Notes: generated by a model not told the origin, from the letters alone. 32,000 bases of DNA from Candidatus Heimdallarchaeota archaeon B3_Heim (GCA_003144275.1 NJBF01000003.1:1-32000); one strand, 5' to 3'; shown: positions 9,120 through 18,523, counted from the stretch's first letter. Made by a program: numbers and translations.

Positions 9120-10583
9120 TTAGAAATATTCAGAAGGATCACGCATTCCGCGCTTTTTGACATCTTTACGAGAAAGAGTTTTAAACTCATTTCGTAATTC
9201 TGCTGGTAATCTGCTTGGTTTTTTAAACCCTTCAACCGAATCTTTGGCATAAGAGTAAATAAAGGTGCGGAAAGCCACTTTCATGGGCATAGTAACTACA
9301 TTGTAGGGAAGTGTTCCAAGGAAAACGAATATTACCGCAAACACAATTCCATACGTTAATTCTTGAGTTACAGCAAATCCTAGACTGAATCCTATTCCGA
9401 TCCAAAGCAGTGAATTTACAACGGCAAAGATAAATGTCGTCAATCCAAAACCTGTTTCACCAACGAGGACATCGACTAGTGCTCCCCAGGTAGTTTTGGC
9501 CGAATCTTTGATCGAATCTCCTAGGCCTTTCTTATTTTGCACGATACTCACCAAGGTAAAATAGTTCAAAAACATCCAGATTGCACCAATAATGGAGATC
9601 AGGAGACTTGCAATAGCAGCGAATATTAAACCACCAATTGCTGCACCAGCATTTCTACCACCAGTACGTGTTGTTTGACCACGAGCAGCACCTGTAAAAA
9701 TCTGCATGATTATTTTTACCGTCGCCATCGCAAAAGCAAATTTGAGAATGATCGGAAATACTTGACGGACATCTTTCATAGCAGATCCCAAATCAGGATC
9801 TAATCCTCTATACCAATCACTGGCATAAGAGATAACTCCAGCAGATAGGCTGTAATATACACCTAGGTACACGATTAAATAGAAATATTCAAAGATAATA
9901 GCCATTATTAGACCAGGATAACTTAATTCTGTTTCGCCTAAAGCATTAGTAACCTCAAAGAGAGAGTAGATTTTGAGAAAGCCAAAAAGCATGAAAAAAC
10001 CCGTTATTATGGAATATATTCCCAGTAATAAGGGCATAGCTAAGACCGCTTTTTCATCGAGCACAAGTTGAGCCGAAAATTCAACAAATTTTCCACTGCG
10101 TTCAATCACTCGAAACTTCCAGATGACAAATGCTAAAAGTAGAAATCCAAAGCCAGCAATAAACATTCCCATCATCGAAGCGTCTAATTGTTCATCCCCA
10201 GGCATGATTATTCCTCCTCCAATCATAAGAACACCTACTACCATCATTAGTACGGGAAAGAGAACTGAAACAAATATTGTGACCTGTTTAGCAACTTTAC
10301 TCATGATCCATAAAATTACAAATGCTAGAATGACAGTCACAACTAGAAACGTTAAGATAAACGCGATTAAGAGCGGTAGAAAGTCTAAAGAAATAGGGAC
10401 TAAAACTTTCAATGCTTCAGACATTTCAGCTAATATACTAGCATTTTCAGGCTTAACAATAAAATCGTAAAATGCATACGCCCCGAAAACATAGAGGGCA
10501 ACTACAACAATCAAATAAAGCCACGTGGGCGTACTTGAAAAATTAGTTTTAATATTGGGTTTTTTATAATTTGAGACACTCAT
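9120..10583 (-). CDS. Choline transporter-like (SLC44/CTL/Pns1) family membrane protein, putative
   Basis: 487 aa, about 10 TM. Segment order and motifs parallel Pns1/CTL: MSKVAKQV, WKFRVIERSGKFV, SDWY, LGSAMKDV, FLNYFTLVSIVQNKKGLGDSIKDS, FRTFIYSYAKD. Confidence 0.6.
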   Translation of the reverse strand: MSVSNYKKPNIKTNFSSTPTWLYLIVVVALYVFGAYAFYDFIVKPENASILAEMSEALKVLVPISLDFLPLLIAFILTFLVVTVILAFVILWIMSKVAKQVTIFVSVLFPVLMMVVGVLMIGGGIIMPGDEQLDASMMGMFIAGFGFLLLAFVIWKFRVIERSGKFVEFSAQLVLDEKAVLAMPLLLGIYSIITGFFMLFGFLKIYSLFEVTNALGETELSYPGLIMAIIFEYFYLIVYLGVYYSLSAGVISYASDWYRGLDPDLGSAMKDVRQVFPIILKFAFAMATVKIIMQIFTGAARGQTTRTGGRNAGAAIGGLIFAAIASLLISIIGAIWMFLNYFTLVSIVQNKKGLGDSIKDSAKTTWGALVDVLVGETGFGLTTFIFAVVNSLLWIGIGFSLGFAVTQELTYGIVFAVIFVFLGTLPYNVVTMPMKVAFRTFIYSYAKDSVEGFKKPSRLPAELRNEFKTLSRKDVKKRGMRDPSEYF

Positions 10584-10833: not shown

Positions 10834-11073
10834 CTATTTACTAACAATAACCATTGTTAGAGTTGATCTAACACCCTTTGCTTGTCGAATTTGATTGATT
10901 ACCATGTCTTTTAAGTTCTTCATAGTATCGGATGAGACTTTACACACTAGATCGTAAACCCCATAAACTACGTAGGCTTCATCAACTTTAATATCTTCAT
11001 TTAAGAATCTTAGAACTTCTTCTTCTTCGCCAATTTCGGCATTGATCATTACGAACGCTGTTGGACGGCTCAT
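10834..11073 (-). CDS. Lrp/AsnC ligand-binding (RAM) domain protein, stand-alone, no HTH
   Basis: 79 aa from ATG 11073: TAFVMIN, EAYVVYGVYDLVCKV, IRQAKGVRSTLTMVIV, the typical AsnC C-terminal domain pattern. Confidence 0.88.
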   Translation of the reverse strand: MSRPTAFVMINAEIGEEEEVLRFLNEDIKVDEAYVVYGVYDLVCKVSSDTMKNLKDMVINQIRQAKGVRSTLTMVIVSK

Positions 11074-11278
11074 GATATATCCACTCTTGATTTTTGTGTC
11101 ACACAAGAAAATATCTTTCTTTTGTCTATTTTGACTACAAACCCATTTGTCTCACTAAGGGATTAAAAAATGTTTGTGTGCCTTTTTTTTTCCTGCCCAT
11201 AATAATTAATAAATAGGCGTAAGATACGGAGTTGTGCAAACGGAATTCGTTCACTTTTTTGCTGAAAATGTGAGGCCT

Positions 11279-12559
11279 ATGGATCTTCGTCATAAACTAC
11301 AGATTCCGGATAAGAATCTTAAAGAAATTAATAATTTTTTACTGAATCCTGATAATCCACTCATAAATGATCTTTTACAAGTAATAGACAAATATGGAGG
11401 AGTGGATGAGATAAATAAGAAAGCAGATGAGGCTGGTCAGTTAGATAATCTAATGACTCGTCTTCAAGACAAGCAACCTAAATATGTGAAAGATCTGGAT
11501 TGGTTAATTGACAAGCGTGATAATGATGCTTTTATAAGTGAGTCAGAATATCGTAGACGAGTTTTAGGTGACCGTTTACCAGATATACAATTTAATGACG
11601 AATATGCAGTCACCCTGGAACTCTCGGCGTGTCAATACTTTCCATTTTTCATGGAAGGAGCCAATCAAGCGATTGGAAGGGAAACCCTACTTCCTGGAAG
11701 AATCATTCGTGTGCGTAAAATGAAAGAACAGGAGGATGATGGGGATCTTTTAGCAATGTCAGCTGCGACGAAAATTATTGGCGCTTCTATTGTTGAAACG
11801 TTGGATACGAAAGGTACTGCTCCAGGTCCAGATGGTGCCCCTGTGAATGTACATCTAGGAGGCCCTGCAACTATTACGGGATATTTCGGAGGCGTTGGCC
11901 AACCAAATGATTTTGCTATGAAATGGATTGATGAATATCTCTATTACTATACCACGTACGGAGTCCAGCAAGCTTTAAACATTAATTTAGGGACAATATT
12001 GCTTGGATATTTCATACACAAATTGGGGATCAATAATGAGTTCAAGATTTCTGTTTTTGTGGGTAATGACAACCCGTTTTCCTGTTTCTGGACGTTGTTG
12101 GCAGCTAAACTCTTTGCACGAGATGATGGTTCAAGTCCCTTAATTGGATTTAATCTTTCTAACTCGGTCAATAATCAGACACTAGAATTAAGTGCCTATA
12201 TCAGAAATAATTTCGGTTTTGAAGATGTTGTACGCTTGGAACATCACATAACTGAAACTTGGAAAAGCATTGTACGACAACCTTACGATCGGCGGGAAGA
12301 GTTAGTAGAACTCGCGCCAAAAGTGAAGAACATCAGTGCGAAGCATGAAGGAGGAAATGTTGATGTGGAACCAAACCGGGATTATCCTACTGACATCCTT
12401 GATTATTTCCGTGATAAATCGGAAATCATAGAAGCTGGCCACTGGGATTACATGAAACAAAATTATTTCGATCGTATGGATGCTATCAATTCAACAGCAC
12501 ATGCATTAACGGAAAAAGGTTTGAGTTTTATTGCTGCGCGTCATCTTCACCATCGGTAA
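11279..12559 (+). CDS. Conserved hypothetical protein, probable alpha/beta-barrel enzyme; first gene of the operon
   Basis: ATG 11279 is preceded by GTGAGG (the ORF track uses GTG 11234). Soluble, with alternating strand/helix pattern and Gly/His/Glu-rich motifs (HLGGPATITGYFGGVGQPN, EHHITET, SAKHEGG). Confidence 0.75.
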   Translation: MDLRHKLQIPDKNLKEINNFLLNPDNPLINDLLQVIDKYGGVDEINKKADEAGQLDNLMTRLQDKQPKYVKDLDWLIDKRDNDAFISESEYRRRVLGDRLPDIQFNDEYAVTLELSACQYFPFFMEGANQAIGRETLLPGRIIRVRKMKEQEDDGDLLAMSAATKIIGASIVETLDTKGTAPGPDGAPVNVHLGGPATITGYFGGVGQPNDFAMKWIDEYLYYYTTYGVQQALNINLGTILLGYFIHKLGINNEFKISVFVGNDNPFSCFWTLLAAKLFARDDGSSPLIGFNLSNSVNNQTLELSAYIRNNFGFEDVVRLEHHITETWKSIVRQPYDRREELVELAPKVKNISAKHEGGNVDVEPNRDYPTDILDYFRDKSEIIEAGHWDYMKQNYFDRMDAINSTAHALTEKGLSFIAARHLHHR

Positions 12560-12561
12560 TA

Positions 12562-13749
12562 ATGTTAACGGATAGTGGCAGAATCATGGATGAAAAACTT
12601 GATTTTGAGAGTCTTAGGACAGGTGCGGGTATTTTCGAAGTACTATCAAAAGCTAAAGCCTTGGAACGAGCTGGTAAAACTATTATTCATTTTGAAATAG
12701 GCCAACCAGATTTTCCCACTCCTTCCCATGTAAAAGAGGCAGCTAAACAAGCTTTAGATGATAATTTCACTGGGTATGTAGCAGCAGCAGGTGTTCTTGA
12801 GCTTCGTCAGGCGATTCAGAATGAAATAGAATTCACTCGGGGTTTTAGGCCAACGGTAGAACAAATATTGGTCACCCCAGGTGCAAATCCCGGAATCTAC
12901 TTTACACTCCGAGCAATAGTCTCTCATCATACAGATGAAGTAATATATTCGGATCCCAGTTTTCCTACCTATGGTGCTGTTCTTAATTATCTGGGTTGTA
13001 AGAAGAAACCTATACCATTGAAGGAAGAGAACAATTTTCGATTAGATCCTGATGATATTGAATCCGCTATAACTAAAAATACAAAAGTAGTAATAATCAA
13101 CTCTCCGATGAATCCGACTGGATCAGTTATGAAGCAAGATGAAATCAATCAGGTTGCTGAATTAGCTGAGGAATATAATTTTTATCTGTTGACTGATGAG
13201 ATCTACTCAAAAATGACTTATGACCAGAAGTTCTATTCTCCAAGTATTCGAGATCAGACAAAAGAAAGAACGATAATTCTGGATGGGTTTTCCAAAGCTT
13301 ATAATATGACAGGTTGGAGATTGGGGTATGCAATTGCTCCTGAAAGAATCATGGATCGAATGGGCTTGTTAATCTCCACAACAGTTTCATGTACGACGTC
13401 TTTCATCCAAAAAGCGGGAATATCAGCTTTAACGGGACCACAAACCGATTTGCATACTAATATGCAAGCTTTTCGGAAACGACGTGATGCAATCGTGAAA
13501 GGATTAAATAATATTCCTGGATTTTCCTGTTTAACACCTCAGGGGGCTTTTTATGCCTTTCCCAACATCATGAAAACTGGAATGTCCTCCAAGGAATTAG
13601 CAGATTTTCTTCTCAATAATGCTGGAGTGGCTTGTTTACCTGGTACAATATTTGGTGCTAATGGTGAGGGATATCTTCGGTTTTCCTATGCTACTGATGT
13701 TACCACTATTCAACAGGCCATTTCTCAGATTAAGGAAGCTTTGGCATAA
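12562..13749 (+). CDS. PLP-dependent aminotransferase class I/II (aspartate aminotransferase-like)
   Basis: IHFEIGQPDF, INSPMNPTG, TDEIYS, PLP-lysine motif DGFSKAYNMTGWRLGY, GAFYAFP, GYLRFSYA. Confidence 0.95.
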   Translation: MLTDSGRIMDEKLDFESLRTGAGIFEVLSKAKALERAGKTIIHFEIGQPDFPTPSHVKEAAKQALDDNFTGYVAAAGVLELRQAIQNEIEFTRGFRPTVEQILVTPGANPGIYFTLRAIVSHHTDEVIYSDPSFPTYGAVLNYLGCKKKPIPLKEENNFRLDPDDIESAITKNTKVVIINSPMNPTGSVMKQDEINQVAELAEEYNFYLLTDEIYSKMTYDQKFYSPSIRDQTKERTIILDGFSKAYNMTGWRLGYAIAPERIMDRMGLLISTTVSCTTSFIQKAGISALTGPQTDLHTNMQAFRKRRDAIVKGLNNIPGFSCLTPQGAFYAFPNIMKTGMSSKELADFLLNNAGVACLPGTIFGANGEGYLRFSYATDVTTIQQAISQIKEALA

Positions 13750-13794
13750 GGAAAACTACAATTTTTGATGATAAAGAATTTAGAAGGCAAAAAA

Positions 13795-14838
13795 ATGAGT
13801 TTAACAAGAATAGCATTCATTGGATTTGGTGTAGTCGGTCAAGGACTCGCTGAAATCTTAGTAGAACAAAAAGAAGAGCTTTCAGAACGCTATGGATTTA
13901 ATTTTCAAGTCGTGGCCATTTCTGATACGATGAAAGGGTCAGTTTATGATGAAAATGGTCTTCATCTTCAGAAGATTTTGGATATTGTGAAAGCAACAGG
14001 AAAGATTAACGACTATCCTGAAGGAATAAAGGGCTGGGATAGTCAGAAAACGATAACAGAAACAAATGCAAATCTGATTGTCGAGGTATCATGGACAGAT
14101 ATCAAAACAGGTGAACCAGCTATTTCTCACGTGAAATCAGCAATTAAATGCTACAAACACATTGTTATGACGAATAAAGGCCCAATTGCTCTCGCCGTAC
14201 GTGAATTACTTGCTATGGCCGCGAATAATGGTGTTCAAGTACGCTTTGAAGGCACTGTTTTGAGTGGAACACCCGCTATTAATTTGGGGCTTAATAATTT
14301 GGCTGGAGTACAGATATCAAAGGTAGCTGGAATCGTAAATGGGACTACAAATTATATCCTTACTGAAATGGAAAAGGGTCTTGATTATACTAGCGCCTTG
14401 AAGCAAGCACAGGAATTAGGATATGCCGAAGCTGATCCGACCGCCGATGTAGAGGGATTTGATGCCTTAGGGAAAATTGTCATTCTAGCAAATGTAGTTA
14501 TGAATGCGAATTTAACAAAAGATGAGGTTTCTTGTCAGGGAATCACTAAAATCACTCCTCAAGATATCGAAACAGCTAAACAGGAAGGAAATCGCTGGAA
14601 ATTAATCGCCAGTGCAGAAATCCAGTCAGATGGATCAGTAAAAGCTGCTGTAAAACCAGAGAAATTACCATTGGAACACCCTCTTGCAGCTGTGAGTGGT
14701 CCGATTAACGCTTTAACCTATACAACCAAACATCTAGGGGAAGTCACCATTATAGGTCCTGGTGCGGGTCGTGCAGCCACTGGGTACGCCCTTCTAACCG
14801 ATATTTTGGACATTCATAGAACAATTACCCGACCTTGA
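13795..14838 (+). CDS. hom: Homoserine dehydrogenase (short type, no ACT domain)
   Basis: IGFGVVG Rossmann motif, TNKGPIA, FEGTVLSGTP, GIVNGTTNYIL, GYAEADPTADVEGFDALGK, GPGAG. ATG 13795 is preferred over TTG 13765. Confidence 0.93.
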   Translation: MSLTRIAFIGFGVVGQGLAEILVEQKEELSERYGFNFQVVAISDTMKGSVYDENGLHLQKILDIVKATGKINDYPEGIKGWDSQKTITETNANLIVEVSWTDIKTGEPAISHVKSAIKCYKHIVMTNKGPIALAVRELLAMAANNGVQVRFEGTVLSGTPAINLGLNNLAGVQISKVAGIVNGTTNYILTEMEKGLDYTSALKQAQELGYAEADPTADVEGFDALGKIVILANVVMNANLTKDEVSCQGITKITPQDIETAKQEGNRWKLIASAEIQSDGSVKAAVKPEKLPLEHPLAAVSGPINALTYTTKHLGEVTIIGPGAGRAATGYALLTDILDIHRTITRP

Positions 14839-14862
14839 GTATACATAAAGAGATGAAGAATT

Positions 14863-16653
14863 ATGGGTTATATGGGCAAATATCTAGAGGTTAATTTGAA
14901 CACAGAAAAAATCGCGGAGAAAACAATCGATAAATCATATGGTAAGACATGGATCGGAGGGAAGGGACTCGGAGCAAAAATCCTCTATGATACTCTATCG
15001 CCAAAAGTTGATCCCTTCAGTCCAGAAAATGTATTATTGCTGATGACTGGACCGTTAACAGGAACTTCAGTTCAAACTTCAGGACGGTGGACTGTTGTTA
15101 CTAAATCACCTCATACTGGGATCTTCTTAGATAGCCATGTAGGAGGAAAATTTGGTCACCGCCTAAAACGAGCAGGTTTTGATTATATTACCATTGAAGG
15201 CCAAGCTGCAGAACCAAAATATTTAGAGGTTACATCCGACGGTATAGATCTTCATACAGCCACTGATTACTGGGGAAAAGGGACATATGAAACAGAATCG
15301 TTACTTAAGAAGCAGCATCCAGGGGGTGAAGTGTGTGCTATTGGCCCAGCCGGCGAAAATCTGGTAACTTTCGCTAATATTGTCACAGACCGAACTCACA
15401 CAGCAGGACGCGGAGGAGCAGGAGCAGTCATGGGTTCGAAGAACCTGAAGGCAATTGTTACCCATGGTACTGAAAAAATAGAGGCTAATGATCCAGAGCA
15501 ATTCAAGAAACTTACTCGAACTTTTACAAAGAAGGTCCGCAATAATCCTGGAGTAAAACGCCGGCATGAAATTGGTACTGTCATGTGGGTTAAAATGGCG
15601 AATGAGGCTGGATTTCTTCCCACGCACAACTTCCAAGCAGGAGTATTCGAGGACGCAGACAAAGTTTCAGGAGAGCGTATGCGTGACGAATTTGTGGTGG
15701 GACATACAGCTTGTTATCGATGCAGTATTGCGTGCGGAAAAACCACTCGCTTTGACCAGGGAAAGTACGCTGGACTTGAAGTAGATGGTCCGGAATACGA
15801 AACTACTGCTCTTCTTGGAGCAAGTTGTGGTCTAAATGATCTGGGAGCGATTGCAAAGGCAAATGAGATCTGTGACGATTTAGGCATTGATACGATCACT
15901 GCAGGTGGTACCATAGCGTTTGCAATGGAGGCCACAGAAAAAGGACTGCTCCGTCAAAATGAAATTGATACACTTGAATTTGGAAATGATGATGCTGTCC
16001 ATGCAATGCTTCGACTATTAGCTTTTAGAAAAGGAATTGGTGACTTTTTTGCCCAAGGATCATTATCTGCCGCCAAAAAATTAGGCCATGACAGTAGTTC
16101 GTACGCAATTCAAGTAAAAGGACTAGAATTAGCGGGTGTTGAACCCCGTGGATCTTTTGGAATGGCTTTAGCATATGCTACTTCAGATAGAGGTGGATGT
16201 CATCAAAGATGTTGGACTCCTGGTGCAGAATTGGATGGACGATTGACGCGGTTCTCATTTGAAGGAGTTCCTCAATTTGTTAAAGCTTCGCAGGACGAGA
16301 GAGCGGCCTGTTATTCGCTCGTCGTATGTGATTTTCTTCCCTTTGATGTCCCCGAAATGGTTGAGATGTTGAATGCGGCTACAGGCTTTGATTATTCAGA
16401 AGAAAGTTATTTATTAACTGGAGAACGAATCTGGAATCTTACTCGCACGTTCAATGTACGTGAAGGGATTTCAGCGAAAAATGATGTACTTCCTAATCGA
16501 TTCTCGCAGGAAGCGGCTCCTAAAGGAGATCCTAAAGGCCAACTTATCAAGCAAAGCGATTTTGAAAGCGCAAAAGGTGAATATTACTCTCTTCGAGGTT
16601 GGAATACCAATGGAGTCCCAACACCTGAAAAAATTGATAAGTTAGGAATATAA
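14863..16653 (+). CDS. aor: Tungsten-containing aldehyde:ferredoxin oxidoreductase family protein
   Basis: GGKGLG, AGRGGAGAVMGSKNLKAI, Fe-S ligands CYRCSIAC, GPEYET, DDLGIDTI, SDRGGCH, GERIWNLTRTFNVREG, EYYSLRGW. Confidence 0.95.
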   Translation: MGYMGKYLEVNLNTEKIAEKTIDKSYGKTWIGGKGLGAKILYDTLSPKVDPFSPENVLLLMTGPLTGTSVQTSGRWTVVTKSPHTGIFLDSHVGGKFGHRLKRAGFDYITIEGQAAEPKYLEVTSDGIDLHTATDYWGKGTYETESLLKKQHPGGEVCAIGPAGENLVTFANIVTDRTHTAGRGGAGAVMGSKNLKAIVTHGTEKIEANDPEQFKKLTRTFTKKVRNNPGVKRRHEIGTVMWVKMANEAGFLPTHNFQAGVFEDADKVSGERMRDEFVVGHTACYRCSIACGKTTRFDQGKYAGLEVDGPEYETTALLGASCGLNDLGAIAKANEICDDLGIDTITAGGTIAFAMEATEKGLLRQNEIDTLEFGNDDAVHAMLRLLAFRKGIGDFFAQGSLSAAKKLGHDSSSYAIQVKGLELAGVEPRGSFGMALAYATSDRGGCHQRCWTPGAELDGRLTRFSFEGVPQFVKASQDERAACYSLVVCDFLPFDVPEMVEMLNAATGFDYSEESYLLTGERIWNLTRTFNVREGISAKNDVLPNRFSQEAAPKGDPKGQLIKQSDFESAKGEYYSLRGWNTNGVPTPEKIDKLGI

Positions 16654-16681: not shown

Positions 16682-18523
16682 GTGACGAAAAGATCGGCTA
16701 TTTCAGGTGTTTTTCTTTTTTGCATCCTAACATTAATTGGAACGTTTTGTTTATCCATATCTGATTTTCCTCTTGGAGATTTCGACCAGTTCATTCCTAA
16801 TCCTCGCTACAAAGCTTCTCAGTGGACCTCTCATTCCCCAATTTTTGTTCATGGGATTACTAACTTTACTCAAACTGCAAATGCAGAGAGTTGGTCTGGT
16901 GATGGAACTAGAGCAAATCCTTATATAATTGAAGGTTATAATATTTCCAATTCTGGGTCACTAATTGTTATTCAGGACAGTCCTTTGTATTTTAAGATCA
17001 GGGACTGTTTTTTGAATGAAACATCACGAGTTGGAAGGGGAATTGTTATCTCAGGTTCTTCTAATGGAATTATCGAAGATAACATGCTTTTTGGTTCATA
17101 TTATGGAATCGAGTTGTACAATAGTGATTATACAACGATTCAGGGAAACCAAATTACTAATTCAAGTATTGGAATAATTTTGAACTCGTCCGATTCGAAT
17201 GACATCACACACAATGGACTAGCAAATAATTTAGATTATGGTATCTCAATATTAGATGGATCAAATTTAAACACAATTGCATGGAATTCATTTTTTTATA
17301 ATGGGGGCATTTCTTCTGAAGCATTTGACGCTGGTGTAAATAATATCTTTGTTTTCAATCATTGGGGAGCATTAACTTCTCCTGATAATAACGCTGACGA
17401 AATTGTTGACGTTCCATATATGTTAGATGGTACAGCAAACAACAGAGACGCGTACCCGTTGATAAGTAATTATCCAGATATTCATGAAATGTTGGAGCCT
17501 AAGGTCTTATTTCCCAATGGTGGAGTTGTAAATACATCAGGTATTATTTCCATTCAATGGCTGAAAGCAGTTGATTATATGGGTCATCCAATCTCATATT
17601 CTTTGGAATACTCTGAAGATGGTGGATCCAATTGGATTCAAATTATAGCTGGATTATCTCTCAATTATTTCGAATGGGATGTTTCAAATACAAGCACAGA
17701 TTTGACGTACATAATTCGTTTAACAGCAACATGTTCTGAGACTCTATCAAAATCAGATCTTTCTGATAACTCCTTTAGTATAAATGTTGATCCTTCTTTC
17801 ACAAACACTGTTACTAGTACCCAAACCAATACCGTATCTCAACCTTCTGAAACAACTAGCAGTTCTTTCGGAACAAATCTTTCAGATTTTATCCCACCAA
17901 CCCTTATTATTTCACTATTTCTATTAGGACTTATTGTAGTATATCGCTATAGGAAAACTTCCTCCCTTGAACCAAAACTCGTCTCTCTTCGTGATCTCAA
18001 ACGAAATCGCGCAGTTCCTATTAAAACTCTTACTGAGGACTTAGAATGTAGTCGTTTAGATCTACCACGGAAGATAAAACATGAAATAGGAGATAAAAAA
18101 TATTCCTTAGTTCTCCGTTCTGATATGATAGTTTTAGAAGATAATCCCCCCTCTGATTCTATGTGTCAACTCTGTGCTGGAAAGTTAGAAGGTTTAGCAT
18201 ACTTTCAGTGTAAAAGCTGCATGAGATATGTATGTGCACCCCATTATGTGGATCTCAAGAAAATAGATGAAGAGAAGTGTCCCAATTGTAATGATCAACT
18301 TTCAATTTTTCCATTCACATGTGAGGGTTGCAAATTAGATTATAATCAAACGATCGATTTAAAAGACAACTCTGAGAAGTGTAAATTATGCGGGTTTTCT
18401 TTACCTTCCCAAAATCAACTCATTGCTGATAACACAAGGAATATCTCCTCTACAATGGACAGAGATATCATGAAGGACGAATTTGAGGATAAAGACAAAA
18501 TTTCAACCAAATACGATTCCTAA
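16682..18523 (+). CDS. Single-pass cell-surface protein: NosD/parallel beta-helix, Ig/FN3-like domain, S/T linker, TM, cytoplasmic RING-like and zinc-ribbon domains
   Basis: GTG start after GAGGTG. Signal peptide; DGTRANPYIIEGYNI and repeated GIxL/N-x-I coils; KVLFPNGG Ig-like start; TM at about 17890-17945 followed by RYRK; 12 Cys/His ligands in the tail. Confidence 0.8.
   Translation: MTKRSAISGVFLFCILTLIGTFCLSISDFPLGDFDQFIPNPRYKASQWTSHSPIFVHGITNFTQTANAESWSGDGTRANPYIIEGYNISNSGSLIVIQDSPLYFKIRDCFLNETSRVGRGIVISGSSNGIIEDNMLFGSYYGIELYNSDYTTIQGNQITNSSIGIILNSSDSNDITHNGLANNLDYGISILDGSNLNTIAWNSFFYNGGISSEAFDAGVNNIFVFNHWGALTSPDNNADEIVDVPYMLDGTANNRDAYPLISNYPDIHEMLEPKVLFPNGGVVNTSGIISIQWLKAVDYMGHPISYSLEYSEDGGSNWIQIIAGLSLNYFEWDVSNTSTDLTYIIRLTATCSETLSKSDLSDNSFSINVDPSFTNTVTSTQTNTVSQPSETTSSSFGTNLSDFIPPTLIISLFLLGLIVVYRYRKTSSLEPKLVSLRDLKRNRAVPIKTLTEDLECSRLDLPRKIKHEIGDKKYSLVLRSDMIVLEDNPPSDSMCQLCAGKLEGLAYFQCKSCMRYVCAPHYVDLKKIDEEKCPNCNDQLSIFPFTCEGCKLDYNQTIDLKDNSEKCKLCGFSLPSQNQLIADNTRNISSTMDRDIMKDEFEDKDKISTKYDS

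Follow-up and report, generated by a model that had tools for sequence, protein, structure and literature searches.

A recurrent archaeal gene cluster that joins an unannotated protein family to homoserine dehydrogenase and an aldehyde:ferredoxin oxidoreductase

The window analyzed here is a stretch of 32,000 nucleotides from Candidatus Heimdallarchaeota archaeon B3_Heim (GCA_003144275.1 NJBF01000003.1:1-32000). Our subject is a cluster of four genes within it, which encode an unannotated protein (X), a pyridoxal phosphate (PLP)-dependent aminotransferase, homoserine dehydrogenase (Hom) and an aldehyde:ferredoxin oxidoreductase (AOR), and the part that this cluster may play in homoserine and aspartate metabolism (Table 1). 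An initial annotation of the window had described the four genes as co-oriented, with intergenic gaps of 2, 45 and 24 nt, and the Hom as lacking an ACT domain; the list of open reading frames (ORFs) and our family scans bear out each of these points. GTGAGG precedes the ATG start of X, and an A/T-rich stretch about 65 nt 5' of that start could, judging by its composition, be an archaeal TATA box.

Table 1. Positions of the cluster, its neighbors and related features elsewhere
Feature	Location	Positions	Strand	Length and family match
X	window	11279..12559	+	426 aa; no Pfam or NCBIfam match
Class I (subgroup Ib-like) PLP aminotransferase	window	12562..13749	+	PF00155, 239 bits
Homoserine dehydrogenase (Hom), ACT-less	window	13795..14838	+	347 aa; NF004912, 439.5 bits
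Aldehyde:ferredoxin oxidoreductase (AOR)	window	14863..16653	+	PF02730 and PF01314
Small stand-alone Lrp/AsnC ligand-binding (RAM) domain protein	window	10834..11106	-	PF01037, 39.7 bits
NosD/beta-helix protein	window	16682-18523	+	613 aa
Membrane protein	window	9120-10583	-	487 aa; weak match to plasma-membrane choline transporter family, 25.8 bits
asd-like sequence	same genome (G000), contig C84	29297-29925	-	
Second Hom and overlapping class V PLP gene (locus L009)	same genome (G000), contig C89	3449-5769		Hom, 312 bits
Archaeal coenzyme A operon	same genome (G000), contig C4	51525-56193		
X'	locus L113	6304-7251		
X'	locus L122	7001-7951		
X'	locus L124	7001-7933		

Three of the four products belong to recognized families. 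The ATG start of Hom leads into an N-terminus with the dinucleotide-fold motif IAFIGFG, its NF004912 score clears the cut-off of 373 bits, and it matches PF00742 (204.9 bits) and PF03447; the Pfam scan found no C-terminal ACT domain of the regulatory kind that many bacterial homoserine dehydrogenases have. The AOR is matched over the full length of both PF02730 (256 bits) and PF01314 (443 bits). Its CxxCxxxC motif (CYRCSIAC, residues 284-291) and further cysteines at 483 and 489, matched to the numbering of the Pyrococcus furiosus enzyme, presumably serve the [4Fe-4S] cluster. Among solved structures it scores higher against P. furiosus AOR (1aor, 472 bits) than against formaldehyde ferredoxin oxidoreductase (FOR; 1b25, 331 bits). 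We therefore set aside a FOR-type assignment, a choice that does not settle the substrate: sequence places the enzyme in its family and fixes neither its metal nor its aldehyde. The aminotransferase is of fold-type I and carries the PLP-lysine motif SKAY (FSKAY); its closest solved relatives are 1dju, 1gd9 and 1j32. It scores below the equivalog cut-offs of all its top NCBIfam models, which describe aspartate and other aminotransferases (319-327 bits against the aspartate aminotransferase equivalogs, with cut-offs of 550-624), so its substrate was not assigned.

X had no match in Pfam (E 0.001), NCBIfam or the PDB, by sequence or by profile. It nevertheless belongs to a large and unusually conserved family without annotation. 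More than 8000 clustered proteins were recovered at 60-97% identity, the best 120 listed being 70-97% identical to X, and the best-ranked relatives come from named Hodarchaeales, Heimdall-, Loki- and Thorarchaeota; clustering at 50% identity leaves only a handful of full-length clusters. The family occurs in at least 585 species genomes, and the best 80 members (61-92% identical) span archaeal phyla and Chloroflexota.

To compare gene neighborhoods, ORFs were called in 82 X loci and the neighboring genes were clustered. All genomes used in this study are metagenome-assembled genomes (MAGs) with anonymous family labels, and the ORF calling was crude, several X ORFs in high-GC Chloroflexota having been lost to overlapping frames. 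X lies with Hom and AOR, usually together with the aminotransferase, in about 19 of the 82 loci, which come from three archaeal phyla and differ in gene order. Hod- and Heimdallarchaeal loci have the order of the window (X-aminotransferase-Hom-AOR), Thermoplasmatota have X-Hom-AOR-aminotransferase with 2-oxoacid:ferredoxin oxidoreductase genes upstream, and one Bathyarchaeon has Hom-AOR-X; the aminotransferase is co-located with X in the first two groups. Recurrence beside X in three phyla and in varied orders indicates clustering beyond chance, and the hom/aor/aminotransferase linkage that the initial annotation had named as a check does recur, the four genes being co-conserved.

A second partner is even more frequent. 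In 40 of the 82 loci X adjoins a fusion protein of about 495 aa that combines a dihydrodipicolinate synthase (DHDPS) half with Fae; these loci belong to Lokiarchaeota and other Promethearchaeota, Odin- and Hermodarchaea, some Heimdallarchaea and Bathyarchaeia. Mixed loci also occur, with X, AOR and the fusion in a Bathyarchaeon (L064) and X, the fusion, an iron-type alcohol dehydrogenase and an AOR in a Loki-like genome (L021). In Bathyarchaeia a single genomic place, next to a TrmI gene, shows three variants beside X: the fusion, AOR with the fusion, and Hom with AOR. The fusion and the Hom-AOR pair therefore resemble modules that can replace each other in association with X. In a single Logan record (P0392, 759 aa) one protein contains both X (55% identical across the full query) and a DHDPS domain; this may be a true fusion or a read-through artifact. 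In Thorarchaeia (for example L063, L065, L071 and L080), X stands between an energy-coupling factor (ECF)-type S-component resembling riboflavin transporters and a rubrerythrin-like gene. A PALP-PadR fusion gene is found near these Thorarchaeial X genes, and no DHDPS-Fae fusion, PanB, Hom, AOR or aminotransferase partner adjoins them.

The AOR and Hom genes found beside X form lineages of their own. In a maximum-likelihood tree, the X-linked AORs of Heimdall- and Hodarchaea, Thermoplasmatota and Bathyarchaeia fall into one clade (support 93/90), apart from the seven other AOR paralogs among the eight that this genome encodes, and 16 of the 18 tree members of the clade travel with Hom. The AORs of L021 and of L122, a Chloroflexi locus of the shorter X' family described below, fall outside it in other subfamilies. 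The X-linked Homs of the three phyla likewise group together, with the same topology as the AOR tree and far from the second Hom of this genome. The existence of that second gene disposes of the possibility, raised at the outset, that the hom of the cluster is the sole copy. The second Hom scores below the equivalog cut-off, and its gene overlaps by 4 nt a preceding gene for a cysteine-desulfurase-like class V PLP enzyme (TIGR01976).

We then asked which genes of the aspartate pathway accompany the cluster. The genome of the window is 94% complete, and calls of absence depend on completeness as well as on thresholds. No aspartate kinase was found in it (best TIGR00657 match 29.7 bits, cut-off 208.7; 14/14 controls positive). 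Its sole asd-like sequence is frameshifted: the N-terminus is in one frame and the active-site region (NCT, SGAG) in another, and the gene lacks its last third. It represents a pseudogene or possibly an assembly error. Conversely, thrB and thrC are intact on contig C51, and the genome has a Cys/Met-family PLP enzyme (PF01053) and a MetE-like gene; profile searches of the genome detected no DHDPS, DapB, DapF, DHQS-II, HcyBio or Fae. Of the separate lysC-asd-hom-thrBC set that the initial annotation proposed to look for, only thrB-thrC and the second hom are therefore present, the kinase being absent and asd reduced to a remnant. In a genome without a lysC-asd set, the simplest role of the pair would be an AOR that acts on aspartate 4-semialdehyde (ASA) beside Hom. 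A need for ASA in the 6-deoxy-5-ketofructose 1-phosphate (DKFP) aromatic pathway or in MetM-type homocysteine synthesis was ruled out, since DHQS-II and HcyBio are missing. The closest relative examined (G095, X 97% identical) still has the kinase; this and the asd relic suggest that the loss was recent and struck a lineage in which the cluster already existed.

Across 251 Asgard genomes that are at least 80% complete, X and the kinase were found, respectively, in 16/17 and 1/17 genomes of the window's own family (f1), 21/26 and 0/26 of f3, 8/8 and 1/8 of f7, 60/65 and 13/65 of f11, 42/61 and 58/61 of f14, 0/9 and 8/9 of f4, and 0/6 and 6/6 of f22. The kinase is present in 2 of the 51 genomes of three Asgard families whose sampled loci have the cluster or the X-fusion pair, and it is missing from 13 of 14 X-bearing Thermoplasmatota and Bathyarchaeia. 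Asd was found in none of the 22 searched genomes that carry X without the kinase and in all three that have the kinase. Families f1 and f3 have no Fae. At a threshold of E 1e-35, thrC was detected in 10/10 tested Asgard genomes (f1, f3 and f7) and 5/6 Bathyarchaeia, and in none of seven cluster-carrying Thermoplasmatota.

The fusion partner offers a clue to the metabolite on which X acts. Its DHDPS half passes the dapA model (TIGR00674, 251.6 bits against a cut-off of 206) and retains both the GTTGE motif and the Schiff-base lysine. The YNxPxR motif has an arginine that we take to bind the carboxylate of ASA in DapA; this residue is cysteine in 12/12 fusions and arginine in both sequences that pass the dapA cut-off (L117 and L120). 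Separate canonical DapA genes are present in a Loki genome (G130) and in G012. The replaced arginine and these separate genes led us to reject a true lysine-pathway DapA, and with the Schiff-base lysine retained they indicate an aldolase that uses pyruvate and a small aldehyde without charge. The fusion of such an aldolase to Fae points to the reversible joining of pyruvate and formaldehyde (as methylene-tetrahydromethanopterin) to give 4-hydroxy-2-oxobutanoate (HOB).

In Chloroflexota the partner is a different one. X occurs in 24 of 301 sampled genomes of this phylum, and in 12 of 21 loci the gene immediately 5' of X encodes a PanB homolog (L089, L128-L130, L132-L135, L139, L140, L142 and L144). 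These X-linked PanBs have altered motifs and form a clade separate from the canonical PanBs; both types occur in G268. At L089 a protein that resembles Glu/Leu/Phe/Val dehydrogenases and has CBS domains follows the PanB paralog. PanB chemistry joins a 2-oxoacid and methylene-folate to form a 4-hydroxy-2-oxoacid. Two unrelated enzymes that perform the same type of reaction, between a one-carbon (C1) unit and a 2-oxoacid, are thus found beside X, which places X at HOB. HOB is the keto analog and transamination partner of homoserine, a relationship that ties the aminotransferase-Hom-AOR set to X. It is therefore most likely that X acts at HOB. The initial annotation had X forming homoserine directly; the aldolase-Fae and PanB partners make HOB the more probable compound. 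With X probably at HOB, the aminotransferase may act on homoserine and HOB instead of, or besides, aspartate and oxaloacetate.

X' is a family of 310-316 aa, likewise without annotation, that is 65-70% conserved over Asgard archaea, Bathyarchaeia and Chloroflexota and absent from the genome of the window. It adjoins one or two DHDPS-Fae fusions: a 315-aa member precedes the fusion in Asgard families without X, and also in Chloroflexi and one Hodarchaeon. Alignment of X and X' with hhalign is weak (E 0.0076, probability 5%); nine invariant residues coincide, and an X' cluster of the ESM Atlas is among the structural matches of the X model, so that X' is probably a short homolog of the X barrel. 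At L122 (Chloroflexi GCA_014360755), X' lies with a transaldolase/FSA, two DHDPS-Fae paralogs, the other-subfamily AOR, a class II aldolase and an FGGY kinase, a sugar-phosphate setting of the X'-fusion module.

The AlphaFold model of X (predicted local distance difference test score 89.6, predicted template-modeling score 0.89) comprises an N-terminal helical domain (residues 1-102) and an eight-stranded TIM barrel (107-422), with a single conserved glycine-rich loop at low confidence. The invariant residues E114, R141, H192, K256, D264, N292, E321, H323, K355, H356 and E357 sit on the barrel strands, as do those of TIM-barrel active sites. Foldseek ranked class II fructose-bisphosphate aldolases first (E 1.3e-4; template-modeling (TM) scores 0.32-0.46; root-mean-square deviation about 9 A), and the ESM Atlas returned clusters of 309-316 aa, U32-like or unnamed, at TM 0.73-0.74; look-alikes from a protein-language-model search were uninformative. 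The barrels of X and X' resemble U32-like Atlas clusters. Against the U32 structure 5d88, X reached Z 11.5, inside the plateau of unrelated barrels, and it had no match to the peptidase U32 model PF01136 in the Pfam scan (E 0.001). U32 proteins of the UbiU/UbiV type have a four-cysteine iron-sulfur site, which X, with two cysteines only, cannot hold. The model describes a TIM barrel that may be, at a distance, U32-like, to which the functions of the U32 proteins RlhA, TrhP and UbiU/UbiV are not transferable.

The invariant lysines, histidines and glutamates suggest that X probably works by enolate or Schiff-base chemistry. More specific candidates are speculative: an elimination-addition at C4 of 4-substituted 2-oxobutanoates, a dehydratase that would give HOB from tetronate, or a further aldol-type step. 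Several other assignments were considered and either dropped or given less weight. PanB adjacency in Chloroflexota had suggested ketopantoate reductase or another pantoate enzyme; this is countered by the complete Dfp-PanE-PoK-PPS-PanB operon of this genome and by the separate clade of X-linked PanBs, with both kinds in G268. That operon, on contig C4, is a complete archaeal coenzyme A operon encoding Dfp, PanE, phosphopantothenate synthetase, PanB and a GHMP-type kinase that is probably pantoate kinase. A reading in which X stands in for DapA without being its homolog and the aminotransferase serves as DapL was ruled out, since DapB and DapF are missing from seven genomes of the genus. The idea of X as a missing homocysteine-forming enzyme is weakened by the presence of the PF01053 enzyme in the genome.

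Together, these results lead us to a tentative interpretation, to which we give somewhat less than an even chance: the four genes would be one module around HOB, homoserine, ASA and aspartate with a net oxidative flow. X would make or use HOB or a close 4-substituted 2-oxobutanoate. The aminotransferase would interconvert HOB and homoserine, and possibly aspartate and oxaloacetate as well, Hom would oxidize homoserine to ASA, and the dedicated AOR would oxidize ASA to aspartate with reduction of ferredoxin. Net flow would thus run from a precursor through X to HOB, homoserine, ASA and aspartate, yielding NAD(P)H and reduced ferredoxin. Such a shunt would need no ATP, aspartyl phosphate, aspartate kinase or Asd, and homoserine could be tapped from it for ThrB and ThrC. 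In lineages with tetrahydromethanopterin or folate, the HOB node would instead be linked to pyruvate and C1 units by the aldolase-Fae fusion or the PanB paralog. The safest form of the proposal leaves direction aside: AOR, Hom and the aminotransferase would join aspartate, ASA, homoserine and HOB without ATP, with X at the HOB end.

The direction itself is doubtful, and we lean only hesitantly toward oxidation. In its favor, the genome has no other known consumer of ASA among those searched, gene order in the window equals pathway order, and the Fae-Hps enzymes of methanogens provide an analogy. Aldehyde oxidation by AOR would pull the unfavorable oxidation by Hom, so that thermodynamics favor this direction. 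The absence of thrC from all seven cluster-bearing Thermoplasmatota means that the cluster does not serve threonine synthesis there, and to that extent the catabolic direction originally proposed for the cluster is upheld; the cluster-bearing Asgard genomes, which keep thrB-thrC without kinase or Asd, fit a biosynthetic direction equally and are explained at least as simply by the reverse flow. That reverse, which we consider unlikely though far from negligible, would have AOR and reduced ferredoxin convert aspartate to ASA and Hom convert ASA to homoserine, replacing kinase and Asd, saving one ATP per homoserine and resembling the acid-reducing couple of AOR and alcohol dehydrogenase in acetogens; in that case the aminotransferase would either make aspartate from oxaloacetate or convert homoserine to HOB for use by X. 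Asgard genomes without kinase and Asd need a source of homoserine, and this genome and families f1, f3 and f7 keep thrB-thrC and the Cys/Met PLP enzyme. Hom is the only known user of ASA in the genome, the Hom of the cluster is the only one above the equivalog cut-off, and the kinase of G095, set beside the asd relic, is what would be expected if the cluster was in place when the kinase was lost. The same reductive reading leaves homoserine without a known use in Thermoplasmatota unless X needs it, does not by itself explain X or why X is associated with the aldolase-Fae fusion and the PanB paralog, and would demand a very reduced ferredoxin pool for the reduction of an unactivated acid. Loki genomes, moreover, hold X together with kinase and Asd, so X is no simple substitute for them.

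The Loki genomes also count against the oxidative module, as do several other observations. No source of HOB was identified in the genome, where neither a Fae nor a DHDPS-family gene was found, and a fold search with VIA (best Z 12.7, on a plateau of generic TIM barrels) gave no informative structural relative of X. The aminotransferase is most like aspartate aminotransferases and, on sequence grounds, may act on aspartate. The genomes are related MAGs, so the counts are not independent and are descriptive rather than statistical; and we infer every substrate (of X, the aminotransferase and the AOR) as well as the direction. An improbable alternative is that the AOR acts on a different aldehyde of the X pathway, such as an aldehyde that X produces or, where Fae is lacking, formaldehyde from HOB cleavage, with Hom and the aminotransferase as a side branch. 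AOR does stand beside X, or beside X' and the fusion, without Hom at L064, L021 and L122, the families with the Hom-AOR form (f1 and f3) are without any Fae, and the pairing of an alcohol dehydrogenase with AOR recurs with a different dehydrogenase in L021. Yet L021 and L122 have AORs of other subfamilies, nearly all members of the X-linked clade are accompanied by Hom, the trees of AOR and Hom agree in topology, and the enzyme is closer to broad-range AOR than to FOR. Mere chance adjacency, in which X has nothing to do with amino-acid metabolism and Hom, AOR and the aminotransferase are housekeeping copies, would suit the Thorarchaeial loci, where X has other neighbors; we regard it as very improbable, given the recurrence of the linkage in three phyla with different orders, the dedicated clades and the fused X-DHDPS record.

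The genes on either side of the cluster in the window were also considered. The RAM-domain gene is divergent from the four genes, and a homolog of 79-90 aa (neighbor cluster c41) occupies the same position in the Hod- and Heimdallarchaeal loci L002, L017 and L024; the protein is a possible amino-acid-sensing regulatory partner of the cluster. The NosD gene starts 28 nt past the AOR stop, with no obvious terminator in between; it is not kept downstream of the cluster in relatives and so probably lies outside it. The score of the 487-aa membrane protein against the choline transporter family falls just below the cut-off of 26.9 bits.

The proposed module shares Hom, ASA and homoserine with the canonical aspartate pathway (aspartate kinase, Asd, Hom, ThrB and ThrC), whose thrB-thrC genes lie elsewhere in this genome. 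It differs in having no kinase or functional Asd, and in placing a ferredoxin-dependent AOR at the position of Asd, without ATP or an acyl phosphate. AORs are known from peptide-fermenting Thermococcales, and in acetogens AOR and alcohol dehydrogenase together reduce acids. The enzyme studied here is of the same family and would likewise couple a ferredoxin-dependent step between aldehyde and acid to an alcohol/aldehyde dehydrogenase, whereas its proposed substrate is an amino-acid semialdehyde and it belongs to a separate clade tied to Hom and X. We know of no report of AOR activity on ASA, and the literature searched contained none.

The DHDPS-Fae fusion follows the same logic as the Fae-Hps of methanogens, in which a formaldehyde-handling C-C lyase is fused to Fae. 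There the lyase is hexulose-phosphate synthase, whereas the X-adjacent protein, absent from this genome, has a DapA-like class I pyruvate aldolase. PanB (ketopantoate hydroxymethyltransferase) is represented beside X in Chloroflexota by a separate clade with altered motifs, whereas the canonical PanB of this genome stands with PanE in its coenzyme A operon. The synthetic homoserine cycle, reportedly engineered from promiscuous Escherichia coli enzymes, runs from pyruvate and formaldehyde through HOB to homoserine. It shares HOB, homoserine, a pyruvate-formaldehyde aldolase and an aspartate-type aminotransferase step with our proposal, whereas the natural, dedicated genes described here suggest a native version with an extra X step and an exit to aspartate. 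In those parts of the literature available to our search, HOB, homoserine and formaldehyde occur together for engineered pathways only (for example PMC8879981). The literature searched contained no published Hom-AOR link, DHDPS-Fae fusion or natural archaeal route through HOB, and a route from X through the aminotransferase and Hom to a dedicated AOR appears not to have been described so far.

A broader and rather unlikely proposal is that a native HOB-centered pathway exists in at least three archaeal phyla and some Chloroflexota. A C1 unit (methylene-tetrahydromethanopterin or methylene-folate) and pyruvate would lead to homoserine and aspartate, with X or X' as the signature step and AOR, interconverting aspartate and ASA on ferredoxin, in place of kinase and Asd. 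If true, this pathway would be nature's equivalent of the engineered homoserine cycle and would let metabolites enter or leave the aspartate family without ATP, making kinase and Asd dispensable; a native route from formaldehyde and pyruvate to homoserine would also be relevant to synthetic C1 assimilation.

Aspartate kinase and Asd are treated as the universal entry to threonine, methionine and lysine (by the diaminopimelate route), and the many Asgard, Bathyarchaeial and Thermoplasmatal genomes without them would be scored as auxotrophs. A ferredoxin shunt of AOR and Hom, if true, would alter how metabolism is reconstructed for the archaea most closely related to eukaryotes and for abundant sediment archaea, and would give the AOR family a physiological substrate among the amino acids. 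It would also flag the X family, which exceeds 8000 sequences, as a missing enzyme at the node of homoserine and HOB.

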